A stretch of 64,000 bases of DNA, taken from the NCBI GenBank assembly GCA_964412505.1, contig CAYPOM010000005.1, forward strand, positions 14,411 through 78,410, in the 5' to 3' direction. The position numbers were made by a program, and so were the translations under genes. Source of the stretch: an uncultured Alphaproteobacteria bacterium (GTDB lineage: Bacteria > Pseudomonadota > Alphaproteobacteria > UBA3830 > CAYLKK01). Below, in pieces: positions 196-47,555 of this stretch. Position 1 is the first letter of the stretch, and each line of letters begins with the position of its first letter. The notes beneath the pieces are model-generated. The model worked only from the letters and a program-made list of their open reading frames with translations. It ran no database searches and was not told the DNA's origin.

Positions 196-3060
196 TTATT
201 TATTAGAATTAAGATTTAGATGCCTTACTTTCTTCAGTTCGTCCTGAATTTGTTTTGTTGGATTGTAATCATGTGTAATATTTACTGTTTGCATTTCTCC
301 ATTTTCCCTCACAAACTTTATTGTTGATAATTTTGGACAACCACTAAAGCATTCATCTCCAATTTCTTCTAATGTACCAGGAAGAGTTATACTCTCTAGA
401 GAGACACATTTTTGGAAACTTCCTTCCGCAAGTTTTGTCACACTATTTGGAATAACTATTTCCTTTAGAAAATTGCAGTAATAGAAACACTGTCGTTCTA
501 TTTCTGTAATTTGTCCTGTAATAATTATCTTTTTTAGTGATTTACATTCCCAAAAACACTCACATCCAATTTTTTCCAAGCTACTAGGAAGTATTAGCGA
601 TTCTAATGATTCATACCCACGGAAACAACCATCTCCAAGCTCAGCAATTCTTACGTTATACTCTTTTTCAAACTTAACTAGATCTATGCTCTGAATATTG
701 TGCTTGTAATATCCACCTTTATCATGAATTATTGTCATAATTCCTTTCGGAACTAATTCTTCTCCATTCTTGTTTAAGAATTCAGCGAAGCTATACTTCG
801 CCAACACCACCTTCTTGAATTCAATATTTTTTTCTGGATTTTCTTTTCTTATCTTAAGAGCTTCACTAAAAAAATTGTTATACCAATCAACATATTGAAA
901 TATCCTTCCGCCTTCTAAATATTTGTCATTTTCATTATAAATATGTAACGTCTCCACATTAGGAAAGTATTTTACTGTTTTTTCATTTACAGAAATTGGA
1001 TTGTAATGGAATTTTTCCATATTTAGCCTAAAATGCTTTGAAACATTTAGCAAATTAACATGATCGGCAAGTGTATTGAAATACTTAGATGCGTAAAATA
1101 TGCAAGCATCGCTTAGTCTAGGCCTCCATTCTGTCTGTTTTATTGAATCATTATATTGACAATCTTCTGCAATAGACTCATTTCCAACATTAATTTCCTG
1201 CCAAGCGCTTGTTATGTCTTCAAACGCGCTATTGTTTCCAGATATATTATTCAAGCTTTCTGTAGGACAATCTATTGCTTGTTTGTCGTTTTCCTCTTTA
1301 TGTAATTTATCTATTTCACACTTAATTTTATATGCTTTCCTCTCAACATTTTTAACATTAACTTGTTTTATATCTCCATCAGACTTCATTATATTAACAA
1401 ATTGCAATTTTGTACACCCAGAAAAACAACAATTTCTAATCTTAGTAACTCCGTTAGGAAGAGTTATAGATTTTAATGAAGAACATCCCTCAAAACACCA
1501 AAGTCCAATATTAGTAACTTCGTTAGGAAGAGTTATAGATTTTAATGAAGAACATCCACGAAAACACCAAATTCCAATATTAGTAACTCCGGGAGGAAGA
1601 GTTATAGATGTTAATGAAAAACATTCACTAAAACAGCTGTCTCCAAGTTCTTTTAAAGTACTAGGGATATTTATAGATGTTAATGAATGACAATCGCTAA
1701 AACAGGAGGTTCCAATCTTAGTAACTCCGTTATGAATAGTTATAGATTTTAATGAATAACATCCATGAAAACACCAATCTCCAAGTCCTTTTAAAGTACT
1801 AGGGATATTTATAGATGTTAATGAATGACATCCACCAAAACAGCCGTACCCAATCTTAGTAACTTCTGTAGGAAGAGTTATAGATGTTAATGAAAAACAT
1901 TCACTAAAACAGCTGTCTCCAATCTCAGTAATCTTTACGCCAGACTCTTTTACAAACTTAACTAGATCTATACTCTTAATCTTCTCTTTTATATATCCAG
2001 CATTCACATCTGCTAATGTGATAATTTCTTTTTTAACTAACTCATTACCTTCTGTTTTTAATAAATGTTTGAAACCATCTTCATCAAAAGCAACCTTTTT
2101 AAATTCAATATTTTTGTTATTAGATCTTTTACTAAATTCCACAGGGTTATACCAATCAACATACAGTTGTATTCTTTCGCCTTCTAAATATTCATCATCT
2201 TTACTATAGACAGGCAATGTCTCTATATTTGTAAAAAATTCTACTGTTTTCGTATTTACAGAAACAGGATTGTAATGGGATTTTTCCATATTTCCCCTAA
2301 AACGCTTTGAAACGAACGTTAAATTGATATGATCATCAAGTGTATTGAAATACTTAGGTGCGTAAAATATGCAAGCATCGCTTAGTCTAGGTCTCAATCC
2401 AATCTGTTTTATTAACTCTATAGTTTCGTCATCTACAATCTTTTTTCCAGAGATCTTATTCAAGTTTTCTATAGCATGTTTTATTACCATGGCACAATTT
2501 TTATCTTGAATATTTTCTTTATATGTATGAACGACCTCCCTTAATAAGTCACCGTATCTATATACTCCTTTAGTTTTTACGTATACGGTTCCATCATTAA
2601 AAGAATATTGAATTCCAGATAGCGAAACATTCTCAAATATCTGATTGTCATTTATAATACCTAGAAGATAGGATGAGCTCGATATTAGCTTATTGATGTT
2701 GCCAGAAAGTGGCGGATCGCATAGGATGTGATTACTTTTGCCTGTTTTCCCCGCTTCTGAATTAAATAAAAATGCAGAAGCTTCTAAATGAAACAAATAT
2801 GACATCGAATCATCCAATAGCCAATATTCTTTAATTTTGCGTTCATTTGAAATGTTAATTAGACTTAAAGGAATGTACATATACTCAGAATATATACCTT
2901 TATATATAGATTTACTATCAGGTAGTACATCATAATGTACATTTTCATGAGGGGACCAAATCATCTGAATATTTGCCATCGCAAGCTCATACTTCATTCC
3001 TTCTGCGCTATAAAACATCCCCAGAGCGACTATACTAGTCGCCAATAACCTATTCTTCAT
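196..3060 (-). CDS. Secreted BspA/TpLRR-type leucine-rich repeat protein with two tandem (non-LRR domain + LRR block) modules
   Basis: 954-aa ORF with a hydrophobic signal-like N-terminus. It has two blocks of ~23-aa Cys-containing LRRs (IGDSCFSECFSLTSITLP, IGYGCFGGCHSLTSINIP, LGDGCFRGYESLESLILP). Each block is preceded by a duplicated ~110-aa module (RPRLSDACIFYA.KYFNTL.DH.NL..VSK.FR.NMEK.HYNP). Confidence 0.85.
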   Translation of the reverse strand: MKNRLLATSIVALGMFYSAEGMKYELAMANIQMIWSPHENVHYDVLPDSKSIYKGIYSEYMYIPLSLINISNERKIKEYWLLDDSMSYLFHLEASAFLFNSEAGKTGKSNHILCDPPLSGNINKLISSSSYLLGIINDNQIFENVSLSGIQYSFNDGTVYVKTKGVYRYGDLLREVVHTYKENIQDKNCAMVIKHAIENLNKISGKKIVDDETIELIKQIGLRPRLSDACIFYAPKYFNTLDDHINLTFVSKRFRGNMEKSHYNPVSVNTKTVEFFTNIETLPVYSKDDEYLEGERIQLYVDWYNPVEFSKRSNNKNIEFKKVAFDEDGFKHLLKTEGNELVKKEIITLADVNAGYIKEKIKSIDLVKFVKESGVKITEIGDSCFSECFSLTSITLPTEVTKIGYGCFGGCHSLTSINIPSTLKGLGDWCFHGCYSLKSITIHNGVTKIGTSCFSDCHSLTSINIPSTLKELGDSCFSECFSLTSITLPPGVTNIGIWCFRGCSSLKSITLPNEVTNIGLWCFEGCSSLKSITLPNGVTKIRNCCFSGCTKLQFVNIMKSDGDIKQVNVKNVERKAYKIKCEIDKLHKEENDKQAIDCPTESLNNISGNNSAFEDITSAWQEINVGNESIAEDCQYNDSIKQTEWRPRLSDACIFYASKYFNTLADHVNLLNVSKHFRLNMEKFHYNPISVNEKTVKYFPNVETLHIYNENDKYLEGGRIFQYVDWYNNFFSEALKIRKENPEKNIEFKKVVLAKYSFAEFLNKNGEELVPKGIMTIIHDKGGYYKHNIQSIDLVKFEKEYNVRIAELGDGCFRGYESLESLILPSSLEKIGCECFWECKSLKKIIITGQITEIERQCFYYCNFLKEIVIPNSVTKLAEGSFQKCVSLESITLPGTLEEIGDECFSGCPKLSTIKFVRENGEMQTVNITHDYNPTKQIQDELKKVRHLNLNSNK
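1417..1932. repeat. Intragenic tandem array of about seven 69-bp units (23-aa LRR units) with a 276-bp higher-order repeat
   Basis: The AGAGTTATAGATGTTAATGAAAAACATTCACTAAAACAGCTGTCTCCAA stretch occurs identically starting near 1601 and 1877, which is 4 x 69 bp apart. TTTTAAAGTACTAGGGATATTTATAGATGTTAATGAATGACA occurs twice, near 1650 and 1788. Boundaries are approximate. Confidence 0.8.
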
Positions 3061-14808: not shown

Positions 14809-16563
14809 ATGAATATCCATGAATCATACAATAAACTTATGAATAATTTTTCATTAATGTCATTAAACCCTCAAATTGCGCTCATATCATTTTTGAAAAT
14901 AAGTGCAGAAATGATGAAAGATCCAGATAAAATTAAAGATTCGCAAAAAGATCTAGTTAATAAGCTAATAGATCTATCAGAATATGCAACAAAAAAAATG
15001 CTTAATCAGGATACATCAAGTTTAAAAAAAGATGGAGATAAAAATTTCAAAGGAGATGAATGGGACGATTATTTCTACTTCGACATAGCTAAACAATATT
15101 ATCTAACTATATCAGAATGGATGAAAGATACCATAAATAACGTGGATATAATAGATCATGATTTAAAACTAAAGTCTAACTTTTTTCTAAATAGCTTTCT
15201 AGACGCAGTACACCCTAAAAACTTCCCGCTCTTAAATCCAGAAGTAATCAAAGAAACAATAAAAAACAATGGAGAAAATCTATATAAAGGTTTTGAAATG
15301 TTTCTTCAAGATTTACAAAACGGAATGATTACGACAAATGACAAATCGTTTTATAAAATAGGAGAAAATATAGCTACGACCCCAGGGAAAGTAATATTCA
15401 AGAATTCTCTTATAGAATTAATCCAATATGAACCATCTACCGATAAAGTATTTTCAACTCCACTTTTATTCATACCGCCATGGATCAATAAATTTTATAT
15501 TTTAGACTTATGTAAAGAAGAGTCTTTTGTTCAGTGGCTTGTAGATAAAGGTTTTACAGTTTTTATAATATCATGGGCTAACCCAGATAAAAGATATGCA
15601 GAATTTGGATTTGAAGATTACGCGATAGAAGGAGTAATCGAATCAATAAACAAAATACACGAAGTTACAAAATCAGCTGTAATAAATACTATAGGATATT
15701 GTGTAGGAGGAACATTAATTACTTCTATTCTAGGCGCACTATCAGATAAAAATTGCAAGATAAAACCAAAAGCGGAAATAAATTCTGCGACTCTTTTGAC
15801 GACCCCACTGGACTTTTCTCGACCTGGAGAATTATCTATATTCATTGATGAGTTTTATCTTAAGCTAATAGGCAATGACTTAGAACGAGACGGCTTATTA
15901 AGTGGGAAGGTAATGTATAACACGTTTAATGCATTAAAAGCAAATGACATGATTTGGAGGTATGTTGTAAACAGATATATGCTAGGGAACGCACCTACAC
16001 CGCATAGCATTCTTTTCTGGAATGCTGATACTATGAATATAACTAAAAATATGCAGTTATTTTTATCAAAATCGTTATATAGAGATAATATTATAAAGGA
16101 GAAAAAATTCTCATTTCTAGGAGCAGACGTAGATTTAAAGAATGTAAATGTACCAATTTATATGGTATCTATGCTAAAAGATCACCTAGTACCATGGAAA
16201 ACAACATATGATGGATTAAAACTATTTAAAAATGTTGTTAGATTCGTAGTAGGAGGATCTGGACACGTAGCTGGAGTAATAAATCCGCCTTGTAGAAATA
16301 AATACTCATATTGGACAAATTCTAATACAAATGAATCTGCAGAAAATTGGTTCGATAAAGCAACAAAACATAAAGGATCATGGTGGAACGATTTATTAGA
16401 ATGGTTAAAACCACTTTCCGGCACTTTAATACAAGCAAGAAAAATTAAAAATTATATGTATGACGCACCTGGAGTATACGTAACAAACCAGCTATCTGAA
16501 GATGATATTATTTCACCAGAGTTAATTAGGATATCTAAGAAATTAAATCAGCTTTCTAAATAA
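14809..16563 (+). CDS. phaC: Class I poly(3-hydroxyalkanoate) synthase
   Basis: 584 aa with the lipase-box-like GYCVGGT carrying the catalytic Cys. PhaC N-terminal-domain-like sequence is present (FKGDEWDD, PPWINKFYILDL). Confidence 0.8.
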   Translation: MNIHESYNKLMNNFSLMSLNPQIALISFLKISAEMMKDPDKIKDSQKDLVNKLIDLSEYATKKMLNQDTSSLKKDGDKNFKGDEWDDYFYFDIAKQYYLTISEWMKDTINNVDIIDHDLKLKSNFFLNSFLDAVHPKNFPLLNPEVIKETIKNNGENLYKGFEMFLQDLQNGMITTNDKSFYKIGENIATTPGKVIFKNSLIELIQYEPSTDKVFSTPLLFIPPWINKFYILDLCKEESFVQWLVDKGFTVFIISWANPDKRYAEFGFEDYAIEGVIESINKIHEVTKSAVINTIGYCVGGTLITSILGALSDKNCKIKPKAEINSATLLTTPLDFSRPGELSIFIDEFYLKLIGNDLERDGLLSGKVMYNTFNALKANDMIWRYVVNRYMLGNAPTPHSILFWNADTMNITKNMQLFLSKSLYRDNIIKEKKFSFLGADVDLKNVNVPIYMVSMLKDHLVPWKTTYDGLKLFKNVVRFVVGGSGHVAGVINPPCRNKYSYWTNSNTNESAENWFDKATKHKGSWWNDLLEWLKPLSGTLIQARKIKNYMYDAPGVYVTNQLSEDDIISPELIRISKKLNQLSK

Positions 16564-17749: not shown

Positions 17750-20200
17750 TCACTGATCGCCTCCATCAGTATTTGGCTTAAATGTAAACGTATCAAACAA
17801 ATTGTTATCTTTATCAGACTGATCATCATCTTTTTCTACTTGTTGTTCGCTATCTACTATACCATCTCCTATTTTGATACCGACCTTTTCGACATTTTGG
17901 ATTTCGTCTATTTCATCTCCGACAAATTCTACATTTGTGTCTGAACTTTCTGTCGATAAATCTTCTGTATTAATTTTTGCTTCTTGTTCATCAGAAATTA
18001 ACGTATCATCTGTTTGTTCGTCTACGACATTCTCCCTGCTAATTTCATCTTTATTTATACTAATATTTTCCTTTTCCATATCTTCTTCATAAACTCTTGG
18101 CAAAACCAACGTCAATATTGTCTCTAAAGGAGAAGTCATTTCGGAATATGTTCCTTGTAAGCGACTAGACATCTTATTAATTCTATCGAGACTTAATTGC
18201 ATATCGTCTTGTGAATAAATCTTATCTTCGACTTTGTGTCTAGTAATATAGAATGTAAACTTTATAAAATCTTGAGAATTTTCTTCTTCTGCTGCAGAAA
18301 ATATTATATTACTGTTTTTATTACTATCTGTTATATAGGAAAATATATCAGATAAAAGCATAATTAGTTTAACATGTGCTGTATATATATAACCTAAATC
18401 AGAATATTCTTGTATTTCTATCTTATTATTATTTTTCAAAGATAATACTCGTACCATTGTATCTATACTAAATACAATATCCGATATTCTGCAATTCGCT
18501 AAATTTGATTTTTTTATTCGACTATCAGTTTGAACAGCTGTATCATATATTTCGGCTACAGCTTTAGATAAATAGTTTGCACTATTATTTATCCTTCGTA
18601 AATCAATTTCTCTTTCATCATGGCTATACTTAGCCTCCTCTAATAATATTTCGCTATATTCACTAATTACACTTGCTGGCAACTTAAGAGCTAGACTTGT
18701 ATGTTTTAAAAACTCTATTTTTTCAGCTTCTGATATAATAGCTTTATCCATAGCAGCTTTATATTTAGATTGCTCAATTAATGCGTTATCGACTTGCTCT
18801 TTGTATGTATTAATGGTCTTTTGTGCATTTTTTTGAATAGCATCAATTCTATTACTTGTTTTTTCTTCCATTTGCTTCTTATAAGAAACGTCATAAGCTC
18901 CAATGGCCGCATAACTTACTCCATCTATTTCAACTACATATATGCTGATAGATGCCCACAAACTTGATCCATCAGTTAACTGCAGTAAAACATCATAATT
19001 CCTAATAGGTATTAAAGATGCAATTGCACTTTTAATGTAAGATACTTCTCTTTCATCAATAACAAACTTAAAAAAATCTACACCAATTAAACTATCAGTT
19101 ACTCTAAATAGATTTAAAGCTTGACTATTATTAAATGTTATAATGTAATCATCACATTTGATAAAGATAACAGGGCAAGGAGCACATCTATTAAATGCAG
19201 TCTCTCTCTTTAGTTTCGCATAGATATTTATATATCTTCGAGCTAAAACTAGTGAGATTAGCAATGTTAAAATCAATCCTACAAAAAATGCTCCATCAAT
19301 TCCTTTTAAAAGCTCTTTAGCTAACACAGTAATAGATGTACTATCTGTTGCTATTACAGACGTTAACATAGGCCCTTTTATTTTTTCATTGAGTTTTATT
19401 TTCGCTATATTTACTCTAAAAGGAATATTATCTTGCATAAAAATAACAGTTTTACCTATATGTTTATTTTTTATAACATCTTTATTGGCCAAGTGGCACC
19501 CAAGTATAACTGCTAAAGTTTTTTGTGATTGCTTACTAAAACTACCATCTAGATTTATATACCTTGAAAAAGATGGAGAGATAACGTAAAAAAACCTAGG
19601 AAATACCCCTTGATCTATTGATCTAACAAATGTATTGTATTTTTTCCAAGGCACAACAAACTTAAAGTAATATTTACTATCGCCTATTTTATGCATCACT
19701 AAATATGATATTAAAATATTAGCAGAATTTCCGTTATTTTCAGGAAATAAGTTAAATACAACATTGCCAGCTTCCGCTTGCTTAAACTCTGCATCTTTCA
19801 GCAAATCAGCATTATCGTATTTGTTTGATGTATATATTAAGGATCCATATTCATCACAAATTTTGATAGATACAATATCTTCATGCTCACCTAAAAATTT
19901 CTTCGTAATCGCTTCTATCTTCTTTAATTTAGCTATGTCACTATTACGAAACGATTTAGTGAATTGCTGTAGAAGAGAAACATCTTTTTCAATACCGACA
20001 GAAATTGTATTCGATATGTTACTATTTTCTGTGCTAATGAACGTATGCAAACAATCTTCTACACTTCTAGATGATGTATGTTCTATATAATTCACACCTG
20101 AATAAAATGGTATGAACAAACACAACCAAACTATCAGAGAAACAAACAAATAACGCGACATAACGTATTGCCCTAAGAAATAACAATACATTATACGCAA
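17750..20200 (-). CDS. Membrane sensor-like protein with a degenerate histidine-kinase core (pseudo-HK) and an acidic C-terminal tail
   Basis: Two hydrophobic segments flank a ~270-aa extracytoplasmic region, followed by a PAS-like region. The DHp-like FLKHTSLALKLPASVISEYSEILLEE has Leu where the phospho-His sits in FLxxxSHELRTPL. The CA-like region lacks the N, G1 and G2 boxes, and the last ~110 aa are rich in D/E. The start is uncertain (an alternative M lies at 20161). Confidence 0.5.
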   Translation of the reverse strand: MRIMYCYFLGQYVMSRYLFVSLIVWLCLFIPFYSGVNYIEHTSSRSVEDCLHTFISTENSNISNTISVGIEKDVSLLQQFTKSFRNSDIAKLKKIEAITKKFLGEHEDIVSIKICDEYGSLIYTSNKYDNADLLKDAEFKQAEAGNVVFNLFPENNGNSANILISYLVMHKIGDSKYYFKFVVPWKKYNTFVRSIDQGVFPRFFYVISPSFSRYINLDGSFSKQSQKTLAVILGCHLANKDVIKNKHIGKTVIFMQDNIPFRVNIAKIKLNEKIKGPMLTSVIATDSTSITVLAKELLKGIDGAFFVGLILTLLISLVLARRYINIYAKLKRETAFNRCAPCPVIFIKCDDYIITFNNSQALNLFRVTDSLIGVDFFKFVIDEREVSYIKSAIASLIPIRNYDVLLQLTDGSSLWASISIYVVEIDGVSYAAIGAYDVSYKKQMEEKTSNRIDAIQKNAQKTINTYKEQVDNALIEQSKYKAAMDKAIISEAEKIEFLKHTSLALKLPASVISEYSEILLEEAKYSHDEREIDLRRINNSANYLSKAVAEIYDTAVQTDSRIKKSNLANCRISDIVFSIDTMVRVLSLKNNNKIEIQEYSDLGYIYTAHVKLIMLLSDIFSYITDSNKNSNIIFSAAEEENSQDFIKFTFYITRHKVEDKIYSQDDMQLSLDRINKMSSRLQGTYSEMTSPLETILTLVLPRVYEEDMEKENISINKDEISRENVVDEQTDDTLISDEQEAKINTEDLSTESSDTNVEFVGDEIDEIQNVEKVGIKIGDGIVDSEQQVEKDDDQSDKDNNLFDTFTFKPNTDGGDQ

Positions 20201-20274
20201 TCAATATTATAAAATTATTAAAAAAAGGATTAATATTGCTACTAATCCCACAGAAATTCACAGTATAGCAATTA

Positions 20275-20544
20275 TTAGCCAAGCATTTTAAGATTTTTAC
20301 CTGGTTTAAACTTCACTGACTTTCGAGAAGGAATAACCATTGTCGCACCAGTTTTAAAATTTCTTCCGTTTCTAGCCGCAACTTCCTTCACTAAAAAATT
20401 TCCAAACCCTACTATAGCGACTTCATCTCCAGCTTTCAAAGCCTCAGTAACAGAGTCTAAAAACGCGTTCAACGCCTTCTCAGTATCTGTTTTAGTTAAA
20501 CCACTCAATTGCATCATAGATTCGATTAAACTAGATTTATTCAT
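20275..20544 (-). CDS. hup: DNA-binding protein HU/IHF family
   Basis: MNKSSLIESMMQLSGLTKTDTEKALNAFLDSVTEALKAGDEVAIVGFGNFLVKEVAARNGRNFKTGATMVIPSRKSVKFKPGKNLK is a typical HU sequence. The ORF track extends to 20622, but the 90-aa form fits the family. Confidence 0.85.
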   Translation of the reverse strand: MNKSSLIESMMQLSGLTKTDTEKALNAFLDSVTEALKAGDEVAIVGFGNFLVKEVAARNGRNFKTGATMVIPSRKSVKFKPGKNLKMLG

Positions 20545-20654
20545 TTTTGTAATCCCAAACAAAAAACAACAATAAAAGAGCAACGCATGCTGCAGACAAG
20601 ATATATCACAATCTGCACTCAAAAATCAACTGTTAAAGCTATGTTTGCATAATT

Positions 20655-21376
20655 CTGCAGATTAAAAGTAGAATCCGAACGGAGTGATTGCTAGAAGAGT
20701 CGAGAAATCGGGCTGATATATTATATTTTTTTAAAGGATTACCCAACTATGAAAGGATATATTAAAAAGAGCGGAAAGCACAGTCATTTATCAATAGAAG
20801 AACGAAGCATGATAGATGTGTTTTTGATTATGTAGATGTCTATTTCGAGGATTGCAGAGCATTTAAATCGTTCCAAATCAACTATTTCAGATGAAGTACG
20901 AAGAGGTAAGTACAACGGCAAATATAAAGCCAAAATTGCAAACAATAGGTCATTGAGGGACAGAAAGCTGTCACACAAACACTCAAAGTGGAGGAATCAA
21001 GATTTGCTGCATATCATTGATAGATACATTCAGAAGCGCTAGTCACCAGAGATTATTTCAAATATTTTGCGTATTGAACATGGCATTAAATTCTTACACA
21101 CGAGCATATACACTCTAATAAAAAAGCACAGACCAGAGTTGAGGAAATATCTAGCTATGAATGGCAAAAAGCCACAAAAAATGTACAAAGATAAATACAA
21201 AGGCTCTATTGAAAATAGAAATAAAATACTCAGACAGCTCTTTTGGAAAGAAAGTAATCCGTGATGAATTAATTGCAAATGAGCAAATCTGTACCATCCA
21301 AATAGACCGATGAAACTCCAAAACTGAAACGCTCCAACTCAGTCTATTTCCAAGTCGTTCGGATTATTAATTTAAT
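20655..21376 (+). mobile_element. IS30-family insertion sequence relic (internally deleted, disrupted transposase)
   Basis: The left inverted repeat is CTGCAGATTAAAAGTAGAATCCGAACGGAGTGATTG. Broken reading frames encode an IS30-like HTH N-terminus (LSIEERSMI..., ISRIAEHLNRSKSTISDEVRRG, SPEIISNILRIEHGIKFLHTSIYTLIKK). A C-terminal NRPMKLQN..TP remnant (like NNRPRK.L..KTP) is present and the DDE core is missing. The right end CGTTCGGATT resembles the inverted left end. Confidence 0.75.
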
Positions 21377-21401
21377 ATGACCATTAACAGAAAGTGAAAC
21401 A

Positions 21402-36017: not shown

Positions 36018-36051
36018 AATCGTACGTGTTGTGTGTACGATTTTATTTTTT
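36018..36051 (+). promoter_or_regulatory. Terminator-like stem-loop plus U-run in the tlc 5-prime leader (possible attenuator)
   Basis: AATCGTAC (36018-36025) pairs with GTACGATT (36035-36042) across a 9-nt loop. TTATTTTTT follows, then GGAGA (36052-36056) and the ATG at 36063. Confidence 0.4.
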
Positions 36052-36062
36052 GGAGAACTCAA

Positions 36063-37529
36063 ATGGAACAACAATCTAAAGAATTTTCCGGGATGAGAGC
36101 TGTTCTTTGGCCTATCCATTCTTATGAATTGAAGAAATTTTTGCCTATGGCAATAATGATGATGGGAATTCTTTTTAATTATAGTATTCTTCGAGGCTTG
36201 AAGGATGCATTAGTAGTAAATAACTTAGGTACAGAGATGATCCCAACATTGAAGCTTTGGTTCGTCTTGCCTAGCGCTGTGTTATTTATGGTTTTGTATT
36301 CAAAATTATCCAACTTACTTTCTAGGGATGGTGTGTTTTATACAATTGTTACAATATTTGTAACTTACTTTGCTGCAGTTGGATTAATTTTTAAATTTTC
36401 TAACCCAGAAAGTTTCCATACTCATTTTACATGTGACTATTCCGGGTTGCAAATAATATTAAACGCTATTGGTTCTTGGATCTATTCATCTTTCTACATA
36501 ATGTCTGAGTTGTGGGGAAGTGCTATGATTAGCTTGATGTTTTGGAAATTCGCAAACGATGTAACATCAGTGAAAGAATCTAAAAGATTTTACTCTATGT
36601 TTGGTTTTGTCGCGAATGGCGCGCTGATCGTTTCTGGCATAGTTTTAAAGAGTGCAAAATCTGCAAATGACTCTACAGGTGGTGGTTGGGATGCTCTACC
36701 ATGGATTGTTTCAACTGTTGTAGTAACAGGGCTTGTTATAATGGCAATTTACTGGTGGTTAAATAACAAAGTTTTGACTGATCCAAGATTCTTCAATAAG
36801 GATGATATTAAGCCTAAGAAGAAGAAAGAGAAATTAAGCATATCAGATAGTTTGAAATATATATTCAGGTCTAAATACCTTGGTTTTATCGCTCTATTAG
36901 TTATATGCTATGGTATAAGCATAAACTTAGTAGAAGTAATGTGGAAAGATCAAGTTAAAATGATGTTTGGCGGTTCGAAAGATGGGTTTGCTAACTTCAT
37001 GGGCGGATTACAGATATATACAGGAATATTCACAATTATATGTATGTTAGTTGGTGCAAATATCTTAAGAAAATGCTCATGGTTCACTGGTGCTATAATA
37101 ACTCCAGTAATGATATTTGTTACAGGATTAATTTTCTTTGGGTTTATAATCTTTAGAGATGCATTGAATGAATATATTATGCCTATTGGAATTGCATCTG
37201 TTGTAGTAACGTCATGGGTTGGATTAGCCCAAAACGTGTTAGCCAAGGGAACAAAATATTCGCTTTTTGATCCAACAAAAGAAATGACATATATTCCATT
37301 AGACGATGAATTGAAATCAAAAGGTAAAGCAGCTGTAGATGTTGTCGGTGGAAGATTAGGAAAATCTGGTGGTGCTGCTATAAATTGGCTTTTGTTAACT
37401 GCGACTGGAGCACAATTAGTCGACTTGTCTGTTGCAATTACGGTAATATTTATTGTTATTAGCTTAGTTTGGTTTACATCTGTAAAAGGTTTGAATAAAC
37501 AATTCTTGGCTATAACGCGAACAAAATAG
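36063..37529 (+). CDS. tlc: ATP/ADP translocase (nucleotide transporter, Tlc/NTT family)
   Basis: The N-terminal LWPIHSYELKKFLPMAIMMMGILFNYSILRGLKDALVV is characteristic of the Rickettsia/Chlamydia Tlc family. About 12 TM segments are apparent. The ATG at 36063 with a GGAGA RBS is preferred over the GTG at 36033, which lies inside the hairpin. Confidence 0.85.
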   Translation: MEQQSKEFSGMRAVLWPIHSYELKKFLPMAIMMMGILFNYSILRGLKDALVVNNLGTEMIPTLKLWFVLPSAVLFMVLYSKLSNLLSRDGVFYTIVTIFVTYFAAVGLIFKFSNPESFHTHFTCDYSGLQIILNAIGSWIYSSFYIMSELWGSAMISLMFWKFANDVTSVKESKRFYSMFGFVANGALIVSGIVLKSAKSANDSTGGGWDALPWIVSTVVVTGLVIMAIYWWLNNKVLTDPRFFNKDDIKPKKKKEKLSISDSLKYIFRSKYLGFIALLVICYGISINLVEVMWKDQVKMMFGGSKDGFANFMGGLQIYTGIFTIICMLVGANILRKCSWFTGAIITPVMIFVTGLIFFGFIIFRDALNEYIMPIGIASVVVTSWVGLAQNVLAKGTKYSLFDPTKEMTYIPLDDELKSKGKAAVDVVGGRLGKSGGAAINWLLLTATGAQLVDLSVAITVIFIVISLVWFTSVKGLNKQFLAITRTK

Positions 37530-44464: not shown

Positions 44465-44636
44465 GCACCAACTTAGTAGTTAATTATAACATATTATATT
44501 ATAAACATTCAAATAACTAGAGATCTTTGCAAATATTAACCAGTGTGACTATTTTTAAAACATAACAACCAAACACGCAAAAAATCACTAACACCGCGCA
44601 TTCTATAGACATATAATTAAGAAATTACAATAAAAC

Positions 44637-45773
44637 CTAATTATTACTTATTTCATAAACTCTCATTTCATCTAAAACGCCTACAAATCTCAATTCTCCT
44701 GACGCATAATAATCATCTCCGCATTTCTTATCATCTATACTGTAAGATTTATATATATCTTCATACTTTTGTACAGAAATTTTCGTACGACTTTCAATAT
44801 TTTCTTCGAACAAACTTACATTAAGAAAACCTCTATAAGTGCTTTGAATTCTTACAGAAAAAAACTCAGAAACACTACCAGAGCCATAACTGTACAAACC
44901 AATATTTTTACAAGATAAATCTTCCTCAGTATTTGCAAGCAATGAAATTAAGCTAATATATAATGACGCAGTATAGCTGTTTCCTATAAGACGATTGTAT
45001 TTGATAGAATTTTTATTAAAATTATCAGCGTTTCCATACAATGCAATATGCCCCTTCTGTGCCATCTTACAAAATGGAGTATGAAAACAAACATAATCCA
45101 ATTCTATCTCATTAATTGCTTGAAAATTTTCATAAGACTTTTTTAAAAAGCTAAGATACTTTTTAGCAGACAGAGCCCCGTTTACAATAGCCTCTTTTCT
45201 ACATACAGGCCGCCAAAAATCCATAGCCTCATCTGCATAAATTCCTGTTTTTGGATTTATGACTGCAATTTCTGGGTTATCAGAAACTATTAAAGCAACA
45301 GCGCCACAACCCTGCGTAGCCTCACCTGGAGTATACAAGCCATAACGAGCTACATCAGACATTATTACAAGAACTTGCTTCCCTGGATTAGCACGAACAA
45401 AATCATACGCAACAAATAAAGCGGCAGTCCCTGCATAACACGCCTGTTTTATATCGAAAAGCTTGCAAGTATTTTTTAAATTTAAAAATTTATGTATATA
45501 TACAGCACAAGACTTAGACTCATCTACACCAGACTCTGTCGCAAAAATTAAAAGATCTATGTTTTCCACACAATATGAATCCATTATATTCTTTGCTGCA
45601 GAAAAACCTAATGTTATCGCATCTTCACATGTGGGTGGAATAGACATTTTTTCTTGCATTAACCCATCATAATATTTTGATATAGGCTGATTACGAGCGA
45701 TAGCAAAATCGCGCATATCTATAAAATATTTAGACGTACTAAAACTTACCCTATTAATACCTATATTTTGCAT
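44637..45773 (-). CDS. mvaS: Hydroxymethylglutaryl-CoA synthase
   Basis: IGINRVSFSTSKYFIDMRDFAIARNQ parallels the bacterial MvaS N-terminus. A catalytic-Cys region (KQACYAGTAAL) and the HTPFCKMAQK and NIGLYSYGSGS motifs are present. The ORF opens at 45788. Confidence 0.8.
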   Translation of the reverse strand: MQNIGINRVSFSTSKYFIDMRDFAIARNQPISKYYDGLMQEKMSIPPTCEDAITLGFSAAKNIMDSYCVENIDLLIFATESGVDESKSCAVYIHKFLNLKNTCKLFDIKQACYAGTAALFVAYDFVRANPGKQVLVIMSDVARYGLYTPGEATQGCGAVALIVSDNPEIAVINPKTGIYADEAMDFWRPVCRKEAIVNGALSAKKYLSFLKKSYENFQAINEIELDYVCFHTPFCKMAQKGHIALYGNADNFNKNSIKYNRLIGNSYTASLYISLISLLANTEEDLSCKNIGLYSYGSGSVSEFFSVRIQSTYRGFLNVSLFEENIESRTKISVQKYEDIYKSYSIDDKKCGDDYYASGELRFVGVLDEMRVYEISNN

Positions 45774-46836
45774 TTTTACTTCTTTCAATACTCAAATGTG
45801 ACTTAATTAATTCGCCATTATTTGTTAAAGCTGCCATCAGAGATAATTCTCCGCACAAAACTGTTGCACCTATTATTGCAGATAAACGCTTAGATCCGCC
45901 ATCATTTAGACCCCCCATCATTTCTAAGTTTTTTCTAGCGAATTCAATATGCTTCCCATTCCCGATAGTTCCAACAATTATGTTTGGCAAATACACTGAA
46001 AAATATAAACTTCCATCATTTTGCAAATTCGCATAAGTTATACCTTGAGAGCCTTCTACAATATTAGCTGCATCTTGCCCAGTAGCCAAATAAATAGCTA
46101 GCAACATATTCGCGAAATGAGAGTTTGCGCTCCTTAGACTACCAGCTAAATTAGAACCAAGCAAATTTTTTGTTGTATTTAATTCACAAATTTTTTCTGG
46201 CGTAGTACGTAACAATGATTTACATACATCTGGAGAAATAATAATTTCAGCATTTACGCGTTTACCTCTGCCACATATTGAATTAATGGCTGAAACTTTT
46301 TTATCAACACATACATTCCCAGAAACAGATATACACTCGCAATCATATTTCGCTATCACAAAGTTAACAAAATTTTGTGCAGCTTTTGTAACCATATTAT
46401 GACCTGACGCTTCTCCAGATTCTATACATAATCTAACATATAACAAATTACCAACAATTTCATTTGATAAATCTATAAATTTTGTATACTGACTACCATC
46501 TTCTATAATGTTTTTTATACATTTGTCATTTATGATATTTTCTGATATCGACACAGCATCATTGCAGTTTTTACATTTCAAAATAACAGACCTAGTCATT
46601 GTATCCTGAGACACAAAAACTGAAATTCCTCCACAATTTTCTGCTACTTTTGCACCTCTACACACAGAATAAAACAAAGGACTTTCTAACGTCGCTAATG
46701 GAACTAGAACTTCTTCGACTGCAGACAGATACCTAATCTTCACTGAATCTACAATCTTTGTCGGAATAACTGTATCTGTACTATTCATCAAATGACAAGA
46801 CATTGAACTACTCACAAAACGTGTAGATTGTACCAC
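45754..46836 (-). CDS. HMG-CoA reductase, class I-like
   Basis: [29 protein letters not shown] parallels the class I [32 protein letters not shown] parallels GDAMGMNM, GTIGNG parallels GTVGGGT, and the C-terminal [11 protein letters not shown] parallels LVKSHM.HNRS. At 360 aa it is short, and the start is uncertain (GTG at 46836 or a downstream ATG). Confidence 0.7.
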   Translation of the reverse strand: [360 protein letters not shown]

Positions 46837-46949
46837 AGATCAACCAAAACACACAGAAATATTTTATTGTTACGAATAGCCATTTTAAAATGATAGTTTT
46901 TCGCAGTATTTTACACAAAATTAATGCTTAGATTATAAGATATTTATAT

Positions 46950-47555
46950 ATGAATAGAATTCTTATATTTTCAACACTCTTTTGTATATTTAGCTCTTTA
47001 CATAATTCTGCATATTGTGAAGAGTTATTTGTCATTGTACCTGAAGCTAGAATAATAGACGCAGAAAAAAGATTAGATTCCCTTTTTCATGAAACAGAAC
47101 AAATAAAAAAAGACTTAGATTCTGTCCAAAACTTGGATGATAAATCTATTATCGCCTCTATCTTCAGCACATTAGCGTCAAGAATACCTGTTATAATAAA
47201 AAATATAAATAATGCAAATAAAGCAATTAGTGCATTCTATACGACAAATAATGCACTAAAACAAACTCAATCAGCAACAGCAGCGAATGAAATGCATAAC
47301 AATTTGTCAGAAATAGAAAGCTTGCTAAATATTTTAAAGAAAGTAACAAAAACAGCAGTAGATCAATCTACAGCAGAAAAATCAGTTTTATCTCAATATA
47401 TGAAAACAGACCCGTCGAACAATGGAAATGTAGAAAATAGCTCAGCTCACAGCTATCAAAACATAACAAAATTTTTTAACGTAGTTAAGAAGTATTTAGA
47501 CATCAAAAGGCAAAGTAGCCAAGCTAATACCTCAAAACGCAAAACTGCAAAATAA
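46950..47555 (+). CDS. Hypothetical secreted protein
   Basis: It has a signal peptide (MNRILIFSTLFCIFSSLHNSAYC) and helical low-complexity sequence. I recognise no motif. Confidence 0.45.
   Translation: MNRILIFSTLFCIFSSLHNSAYCEELFVIVPEARIIDAEKRLDSLFHETEQIKKDLDSVQNLDDKSIIASIFSTLASRIPVIIKNINNANKAISAFYTTNNALKQTQSATAANEMHNNLSEIESLLNILKKVTKTAVDQSTAEKSVLSQYMKTDPSNNGNVENSSAHSYQNITKFFNVVKKYLDIKRQSSQANTSKRKTAK

Follow-up and report, generated by a model that had tools for sequence, protein, structure and literature searches.

An overlapping hmgR-hmgS gene pair with a class I-type HMG-CoA reductase in a Holosporaceae-like clade of Alphaproteobacteria

The supply of isoprenoid precursors sets the dependence of an intracellular bacterium on its host. 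Most Alphaproteobacteria other than Rickettsia use the methylerythritol phosphate (MEP) route to these precursors, and the presence of two adjacent mevalonate (MVA) pathway genes in an uncultured alphaproteobacterium raises the question of what such a pair does and how it came to be there. The pair, which encodes a 3-hydroxy-3-methylglutaryl-coenzyme A (HMG-CoA) reductase (hmgR) and an HMG-CoA synthase (hmgS), lies in a 64,000-nucleotide stretch of contig CAYPOM010000005.1 (the window) and was first described, in a prediction made from the letters of the window, as a laterally acquired module in an endosymbiont. The analysis presented here argues that the pair is probably a functional operon feeding a mevalonate route, which was ancestral to a clade of Alphaproteobacteria and has been inherited vertically within it, any horizontal transfer being ancient.

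Both genes lie on the minus strand. From their earliest starts the two open reading frames (ORFs) run 45754..46836 (360 aa, GTG) and 44637..45788 (383 aa, TTG) with an overlap of 35 nt. The ATG starts at 46803 (349 aa) and 45773 (378 aa) are preferred on the basis of the aligned N-termini of relatives and of public gene calls on L001, a 7.3 kb Logan contig identical to the window sequence, and with these starts the overlap is 20 nt. As such, both start choices fall within the overlap of 20-35 nt originally given for the two genes, and the motifs then quoted from their products (including GEASGHNM) were all found, with matches far beyond chance. The features of the pair are as follows.

45754..46803, minus strand: hmgR, class I-type HMG-CoA reductase, 349 aa, ATG at 46803; the alternative in-frame GTG at 46836 gives 360 aa
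44637..45773, minus strand: hmgS (mvaS), HMG-CoA synthase, 378 aa, ATG at 45773; the alternative TTG at 45788 gives 383 aa
45754..45773, minus strand: overlap of the hmgR stop and the hmgS start, 20 nt, preceded by GAAAGAAG, read in the sequence

The public gene calls on L001 give an identical 20-nt overlap, and hmgR and hmgS were adjacent or overlapping in all of the relatives looked at. The overlap, together with the purine run GAAAGAAG ahead of the hmgS start, suggests that the two genes are translationally coupled.

The assignment of hmgR to the class I HMG-CoA reductases was upheld by its domain match, by its relatives of known structure and by the fold of its model. The protein matched Pfam PF00368 (HMG-CoA_red) with an E-value of 5.6e-81 and 272.8 bits against a gathering score of 27, the match spanning residues 24-351 of the protein and positions 43-367 of the 368 in the profile. 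All six sequence matches in the PDB at E<=1e-10 were class I enzymes of archaeal, plant or human origin, the best being Methanothermococcus 6hr7 (9.8e-68) with human 1dq8 (3.3e-52) and an Arabidopsis enzyme also matched. An AlphaFold model, for which 21 homologues were used, had a predicted local distance difference test (pLDDT) score of 85 and, among the best 50 Foldseek matches listed, all were human or archaeal class I reductases with template modelling (TM) scores of 0.79-0.84. In a phmmer alignment to 1dq8, residues E40, D167-K168-K169, D244 and H336 of hmgR (counted from M12 of the long ORF) align to human E559, D690-K691-K692, D767 and H866, such that the catalytic Glu, Lys, Asp and His are all kept, and these residues did not vary in either of two alignments, one of 21 and one of 30 homologues. 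The enzymes of M. thermolithotrophicus (6hr7), human (1dq8) and Arabidopsis (8ecg) thus share with hmgR their fold (TM 0.81-0.84, the superposition of the model on the human and archaeal reductases giving the same range), their catalytic and substrate-binding residues and 34-41% identity, but differ from it in that hmgR has no N-domain, the alignment beginning at archaeal residue 95, has no membrane anchor and, at the cofactor motif, reads EASGHNM where the three read DAMGMNM.

The short length of hmgR and its GEASG motif had been singled out as oddities, and the wider family argues otherwise. Homologues numbered 5,877 at E<=1e-5, with the best 120 nearly all 335-368 aa in length. These start approximately eight residues before the start point of the human L-domain, indicating that the non-catalytic N-domain is missing in the bacterial family, and their consensus is TG[DEN]ASGHNM where the eukaryotic and archaeal enzymes have GDAMGMNM. 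Judged from these alignments, the short length and the GEASG motif are to be read as traits of a very large family of bacterial class I reductases of ~340-350 aa and not as decay. We take the reductase of Streptomyces sp. CL190 to be the type example of this family. Its members in Coxiellaceae, Legionellales, Francisellaceae, Oceanospirillales and Liberibacter are like the hmgR of the window in length (~340-350 aa), are 47-57% identical to it, share the motifs G[DEN]ASGHNM, SGNxCxDKK and GEL(x)xSH, begin the same ~8 residues before the L-domain and likewise have hmgR directly upstream of hmgS. The homologues in Holosporaceae metagenome-assembled genomes (MAGs) were already labelled as HMG-CoA reductase in NCBI and JGI.

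The motifs by which hmgS had been recognized as an HMG-CoA synthase gene were confirmed by comparison with solved enzymes. The protein scored 378.3 bits against NCBIfam TIGR01835, over the cut-off of 360.35, with residues 9-378 covering profile positions 1-382 of 382, and matched Pfam HMG_CoA_synt_N (5.7e-14) and HMG_CoA_synt_C (5.8e-24). Its best solved relative was MvaS of Staphylococcus aureus (1xpk, 1.6e-79), aligned end to end, in which ATESAVD, KEACYAA and CFHVPF correspond to ATESGVD, KQACYAG and CFHTPF of hmgS, such that the catalytic Glu, Cys and His are kept. Both S. aureus 1xpk and Enterococcus faecalis MvaS (1x9e) align to hmgS over their full length (E-values of 1e-70 to 1e-79) and share these Glu, Cys and His motifs. 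The motifs ATES, QACYA and CFHTPF presumably carry the equivalents of S. aureus Glu79, Cys111 and His233. Gram-positive cocci pair MvaS with a class II reductase (MvaA or MvaE), unlike the window, in which hmgS is partnered with a class I enzyme.

In the proposed scheme, hmgR and hmgS would form a two-gene operon read from hmgR to hmgS and coupled in translation through the 20-nt overlap. HmgS would convert acetyl-CoA and acetoacetyl-CoA to HMG-CoA, and the class I-type reductase without an N-domain would convert HMG-CoA to mevalonate. The cofactor would presumably be NADPH. Class I reductases, known from archaea, from eukaryotes and from a part of the bacteria, depend on NADPH and are sensitive to statins (PMC13001223). 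The mevalonate would then feed a route to isopentenyl diphosphate (IPP), with mvk, pmk, mvd and fni located elsewhere in the genome. A side observation touches on the substrate of the synthase, in that the window also encodes the following enzyme in an otherwise reduced genome.

14809-16563, plus strand: PhaC, poly-hydroxybutyrate synthase

PhaC implies a pool of acetoacetyl-CoA, the substrate of HMG-CoA synthase; no thiolase or PhaB was found within the window.

The history of the pair was followed in neighbour-joining (NJ) trees of both proteins, the reductase trees holding 203 and 283 sequences with 200 and 100 bootstraps, respectively. The reductase of the window grouped with that of the closest relative found (P0002/L087) in 200/200 bootstraps and fell within a subclade of 9-10 members (190/200 and 89/100), itself within a clade of 53-57 members. 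The named members of this larger clade were all MAGs of Alphaproteobacteria or Holosporaceae, with no gammaproteobacterial or verrucomicrobial sequence among them. In keeping with this, all nine synthases of the alphaproteobacterial clade were monophyletic in the HMGS tree (194/200 bootstraps), and the inner order of window, L087, L002 and L169 was the same in the HMGS and HMGR trees, indicating that the two genes have travelled together. On the contig of one clade member (L004), which carries LepA and PheS as well as the pair, identity to the window was 74% for LepA, 53% for PheS, 57% for HMGR and 45% for HMGS, such that the pair has diverged about as far as housekeeping genes. Alphaproteobacterial markers (CtrA and ATPase inhibitor subunit zeta) were present in the flanks of clade members. 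A metagenome scan found a single contig of the clade, 1.3 kb in length. From these sequence comparisons it is most likely that a broad alphaproteobacterial clade had the pair from its common ancestor onwards and passed it down vertically as one unit, with the flanks rearranged around it. Beyond the clade, the hmgR family was found, among the matches listed, in Gammaproteobacteria (with Coxiellaceae, Legionellales, Francisellaceae and Oceanospirillales), Verrucomicrobiota, Kiritimatiellae, Myxococcota, Calditrichota, Spirochaetia and Liberibacter. This spread over many phyla points to deep horizontal transfer, so that a transfer is plausible only if placed at the base of the clade or earlier.

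In two diplonemid strains, of a group that carries Holosporales endosymbionts, an HMG-CoA synthase "from Pseudomonadota" has been reported to be a product of horizontal transfer (bioRxiv 10.64898/2026.01.29.702485). This synthase may belong to the same alphaproteobacterial hmgS lineage or may represent symbiont contamination.

As originally described, the pair lies between atp genes downstream and an orphan ORF upstream on the other strand, a position that had been read as a sign of its origin. This arrangement was found in this genome only. At L087 the pair lies between ferritin and nuoN-M-L and in other clade members its neighbours were PGM and IF3, LepA and leucyl aminopeptidase, MurJ and DsbD, SpoU and NAD kinase, or an M50 peptidase. 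Since the neighbours differ in every relative, including the one that is 80% identical, a position beside atp is uninformative on origin; the pair is a conserved unit and its surroundings are not. The flanking features in the window are as follows.

46950-47555, plus strand: orphan ORF, 201 aa, with a hydrophobic, signal-peptide-like N-terminus (MNRILIFSTLFCIFSSLHNSAYC)
46804..46949, minus strand: intergenic region upstream of hmgR, shared with the divergent orphan ORF, with a promoter-like TTTAAA-17-TAAAAT at 46889-46861
44465..44636, minus strand: hmgS-atpB spacer, 172 nt, with a promoter-like TTGAAT-18-(TG)TATAAT at 44512-44483

The orphan ORF was matched by neither Pfam nor NCBIfam. It recurs in L001, the contig identical to the window sequence, but in L087 it does not adjoin the pair. 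In a consensus scan the site in the spacer, which has an extended -10, was better than the weak site upstream of hmgR, which suggests that atp may have its own promoter, with read-through from hmgS possible.

The claim that the pair entered this genome laterally, as a recent island between the atp operon and the orphan gene, was not sustained, even though members of the family occur in many scattered phyla, relatives differ in the genes around the pair and the adjoining ORF has no family match. The GC content of hmgR-hmgS (0.33) and that at third codon positions (GC3, 0.22) equal those of the rest of the window and are indistinguishable from those of neighbouring genes. Flanking repeats around the pair were AT-rich chance repeats only, Pfam scans of the window ORFs found no integrase, transposase or mobile element near the pair, and the nearest tRNA is 3 kb away with none adjacent. 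The usual marks of a recent genomic island are thus missing, and the closest relatives carry orthologous pairs. For both genes the nearest homologues are alphaproteobacterial; they diverge together and do so to an extent akin to housekeeping genes. Trees with such a placement had been named at the outset as an outcome that would refute lateral acquisition. The pair at L087 is 80% identical in hmgR and 76% in hmgS at the amino-acid level, with a synonymous divergence (dS) of ~1, from which it follows that the pair is older than the split between the two genomes. On this evidence a recent island is highly improbable.

A functional, clade-ancestral operon has in turn to be set against a number of results that weigh against it. 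The reductase scored 294.9 bits against TIGR00533, the NCBIfam profile of the NADPH type, under the curated cut-off of 441.8, with the match starting at profile position 72 of 402, although this shortfall reflects an N-terminal region that is absent family-wide (the first 71 positions being unmatched) and not damage. The 53-57 member HMGR clade was weakly supported (86/200 and 18/100) in trees that were NJ and not maximum likelihood. A scan found no terminator-like hairpin after hmgS, in the 172-nt spacer, and counts of promoter- or terminator-like sites were no higher than in shuffled sequence, so the sites listed above are candidate signals only and weak pointers. Pfam scans of ~46 ORFs of the 64 kb window, and tblastn of the window with queries for MVK, a GHMP kinase, MVD and IDI-2, gave no mvk, pmk, mvd or idi, in agreement with the original statement that the downstream kinases, decarboxylase and isomerase lie outside it. 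The same tblastn searches covered 171 loci besides the window, and none of these genes was found within 10 kb of the pair in nine of nine contexts of the alphaproteobacterial clade, save one fni in L007. Likewise, an MVD search seeded from Liberibacter, which was not designed to reach the clade, gave no Holosporaceae-named match in its best 120, the matches being to Liberibacter and Oceanospirillales only. Given these absences the lower pathway is assumed and not seen, but it is rather likely to lie elsewhere in the genome. The MEP pathway is presumed to be absent from the genome; within the window, Pfam scans found no MEP gene and only a weak IspD-like match inside GlmU. The fni in L007, 2.6 kb downstream of hmgS, was the sole other isoprenoid gene near any pair of the clade.

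L007:7034-7957 (JAFUZX010000024.1, alphaproteobacterial MAG from roe-deer rumen), minus strand: type-2 IPP isomerase (fni), TIGR02151, 348 bits, cut by the contig end

The same absences could be taken to mean that the clade has the upper half of the pathway only, mvk, pmk and mvd having been lost or never gained. Its end product would then be mevalonate or HMG-CoA, passed for example to the lower pathway of the eukaryotic host, with IPP taken back from the host. The separation of the pair from kinase and decarboxylase genes in all nine contexts would fit this, as most relatives outside the clade keep a contiguous operon, and so would the Liberibacter-seeded search and the finding of fni alone near the pair. 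Rickettsia, which keeps only Idi, shows that an intracellular alphaproteobacterium can live on imported isoprenoid precursors (PMC5615194). Against this, mevalonate costs three acetyl-CoA and two NADPH, dispersed pathway genes are normal in the rearranged genomes of endosymbionts, the absence covers 10 kb only, the MVD search was not built to reach the clade, and an essential supply of IPP is the simpler explanation for purifying selection as strong as this throughout a deep clade. We know of no bacterial use for free mevalonate, which also speaks against an upper half alone. Such a truncated pathway is therefore unlikely, and its bolder form, in which the upper half is kept clade-wide under strong selection and mevalonate is handed to the lower pathway of a eukaryotic host and not turned to IPP in the bacterium, is decidedly so. 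A reading of the two genes as remnants in decay, or as recruits to HMG-ACP-type beta-branching (as PksG and CurD) or to catabolic oxidation of mevalonate, could be argued from the reductase falling under the TIGR00533 cut-off with ~70 N-terminal profile positions missing, and from polyketide-pathway HMGS-like enzymes being detectable homologues of the synthase (1e-42 to 1e-46). Both frames are intact, however, with all catalytic residues kept, and the missing N-terminus is family-wide. Against L087, hmgR and hmgS had ratios of nonsynonymous to synonymous divergence (dN/dS) of 0.11 and 0.16, respectively, close to the 0.09 of a ferritin gene common to both genomes, indicating ordinary purifying selection on both genes and no decay. 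The synthase passes the equivalog cut-off for HMG-CoA synthase and matches MvaS at 1e-79 compared with 1e-46 for PksG, while Pfam scans of the window found no polyketide synthase, acyl carrier protein or ECH genes and no HMG-CoA lyase nearby, so that decay or recruitment is extremely improbable.

Several loci met with in the search for lower-pathway genes differ from the arrangement of the clade. The most AT-rich MVD match outside Liberibacter (P0348) was rejected as a candidate, lying on a low-GC contig with gammaproteobacterial-looking neighbours in the order hmgS-kinase-kinase-mvd (L171:6825-10990). No hmgR adjoins this cluster, a split of the operon opposite in kind to that in the clade of the window. 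Also rejected was an ORF of 311 aa, without annotation, that lies downstream of hmgS in L170 and reads as a signal-peptide, outer-membrane-like protein with no similarity to MVA kinases. On a 1.45 Mb contig (L003:11070-13322, ERZ25039465 contig_28423) an HMG-CoA synthase is fused in frame to a GHMP kinase to give a protein of 750 aa, with mvk and mvd ~6 kb beyond the fusion, past an inserted type VI secretion system Hcp block.

Outside the alphaproteobacterial clade, hmgR and hmgS usually head a contiguous, full MVA operon, which in most bacterial class I relatives comprises fni, two GHMP kinases and mvd, whereas in the window and its clade the pair is detached. The mevalonate pathway is not new to host-restricted Alphaproteobacteria. 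A complete, horizontally acquired MVA pathway is reported in 'Ca. Sarmatiella mevalonica' of the Rickettsiaceae (Castelli et al., 2021, cited in PMC11253213), and the MVA cluster of Liberibacter is listed among horizontally acquired loci (PMC7170780), while Rickettsia is without both pathways and imports isoprenoid precursors (PMC5615194). Both 'Ca. Sarmatiella mevalonica' and Liberibacter are, like the host of the window, intracellular or host-restricted alphaproteobacteria with MVA genes of non-alphaproteobacterial type that are interpreted as horizontal acquisitions. The Liberibacter reductase is 49% identical to that of the window, but its gene lies in a contiguous six-gene operon, unlike the detached pair of the window.

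L040:9989-16184 (NZ_JAAEJX010000003.1): operon of 'Ca. Liberibacter brunswickensis' with hmgR, fni, hmgS, GHMP kinase, mvk/pmk-like kinase and mvd

MVD homologues were present in all named Liberibacter species. The genes of the window form a separate, clade-specific lineage in a host nearer to Holosporaceae-labelled MAGs than to Rickettsiaceae, and the text of a large 2025 review of the Holosporales holds no mention of isoprenoid, terpenoid, HMG, isopentenyl, MEP pathway or "mevalonate". On these sequence data, an hmgR-hmgS unit of the statin-sensitive class I type is conserved across a broad Holosporaceae-like clade, most of whose members are uncultured. What is modestly new is a whole Holosporaceae-like clade with a detached hmgR-hmgS unit, the enzymes and the phenomenon being already known, and as the enzymes are conventional the value of the finding lies in comparative and evolutionary biology and not in mechanism. 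Should the lower pathway be confirmed, the clade would be a third example of MVA genes in host-restricted Alphaproteobacteria, after Liberibacter and Sarmatiella, and an example of the splitting of a usually contiguous MVA operon.

The description of the host as an alphaproteobacterial endosymbiont was supported by a Tlc translocase and by the relatives of LepA. The LepA of the window was 78-80% identical to MAG proteins named "Alphaproteobacteria bacterium" or "Holosporaceae bacterium" in NCBI, with Rickettsiaceae absent among the best 120 relatives. Taken with Tlc, these relatives identify the host, on sequence grounds, as a presumptive obligate intracellular alphaproteobacterium that is less close to Rickettsia and 'Ca. 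Sarmatiella' than to the MAGs labelled Holosporaceae, and the comparison with Rickettsia that had been drawn holds by analogy only. On the same LepA results 'Ca. Sarmatiella mevalonica' was rejected as the source of the window. Two of the host-related genes are as follows.

36033-37529, plus strand: Tlc ATP/ADP translocase, PF03219, E-value of 3e-169
196-3060, minus strand: BspA-type leucine-rich-repeat (LRR) protein, 954 aa

A Tlc translocase and a BspA-type LRR protein are both typical of intracellular bacteria that parasitize the energy supply of a host and interact with it, and LRR_5 proteins also flank the hmgR-hmgS pair in the relatives L002 and L004. The window, which has a GC content of 32%, also encodes NtrY/NtrX, GlmS/GlmU and atpB-E-F'-F in addition to PhaC.

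The remaining features of the window are of lesser bearing on the pair and comprise large ORFs with no Pfam match (E<=1e-4) and stretches of 1.2-1.4 kb with no ORF of at least 120 aa.

17750-20200, minus strand: ORF with no Pfam match, 816 aa
33954-35225, plus strand: ORF with no Pfam match, 423 aa
51323-53185, minus strand: ORF with no Pfam match, 620 aa
58137-59570, minus strand: ORF with no Pfam match, 477 aa
61672-63738, minus strand: ORF with no Pfam match, 688 aa
8471-9834: ORF-poor stretch
20201-21401: ORF-poor stretch

The five unmatched ORFs may encode lineage-specific surface or effector proteins. The two ORF-poor stretches, which gave no Rfam family at gathering score, may be pseudogenes or non-coding DNA, and one frame of 20300-21400 holds 25 stop codons. 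The GC skew changes sign at ~24000 and ~38000, from negative to positive and back to negative, tracking the change of coding strand, and is attributed to gene orientation or a past inversion rather than to a replication origin or terminus.

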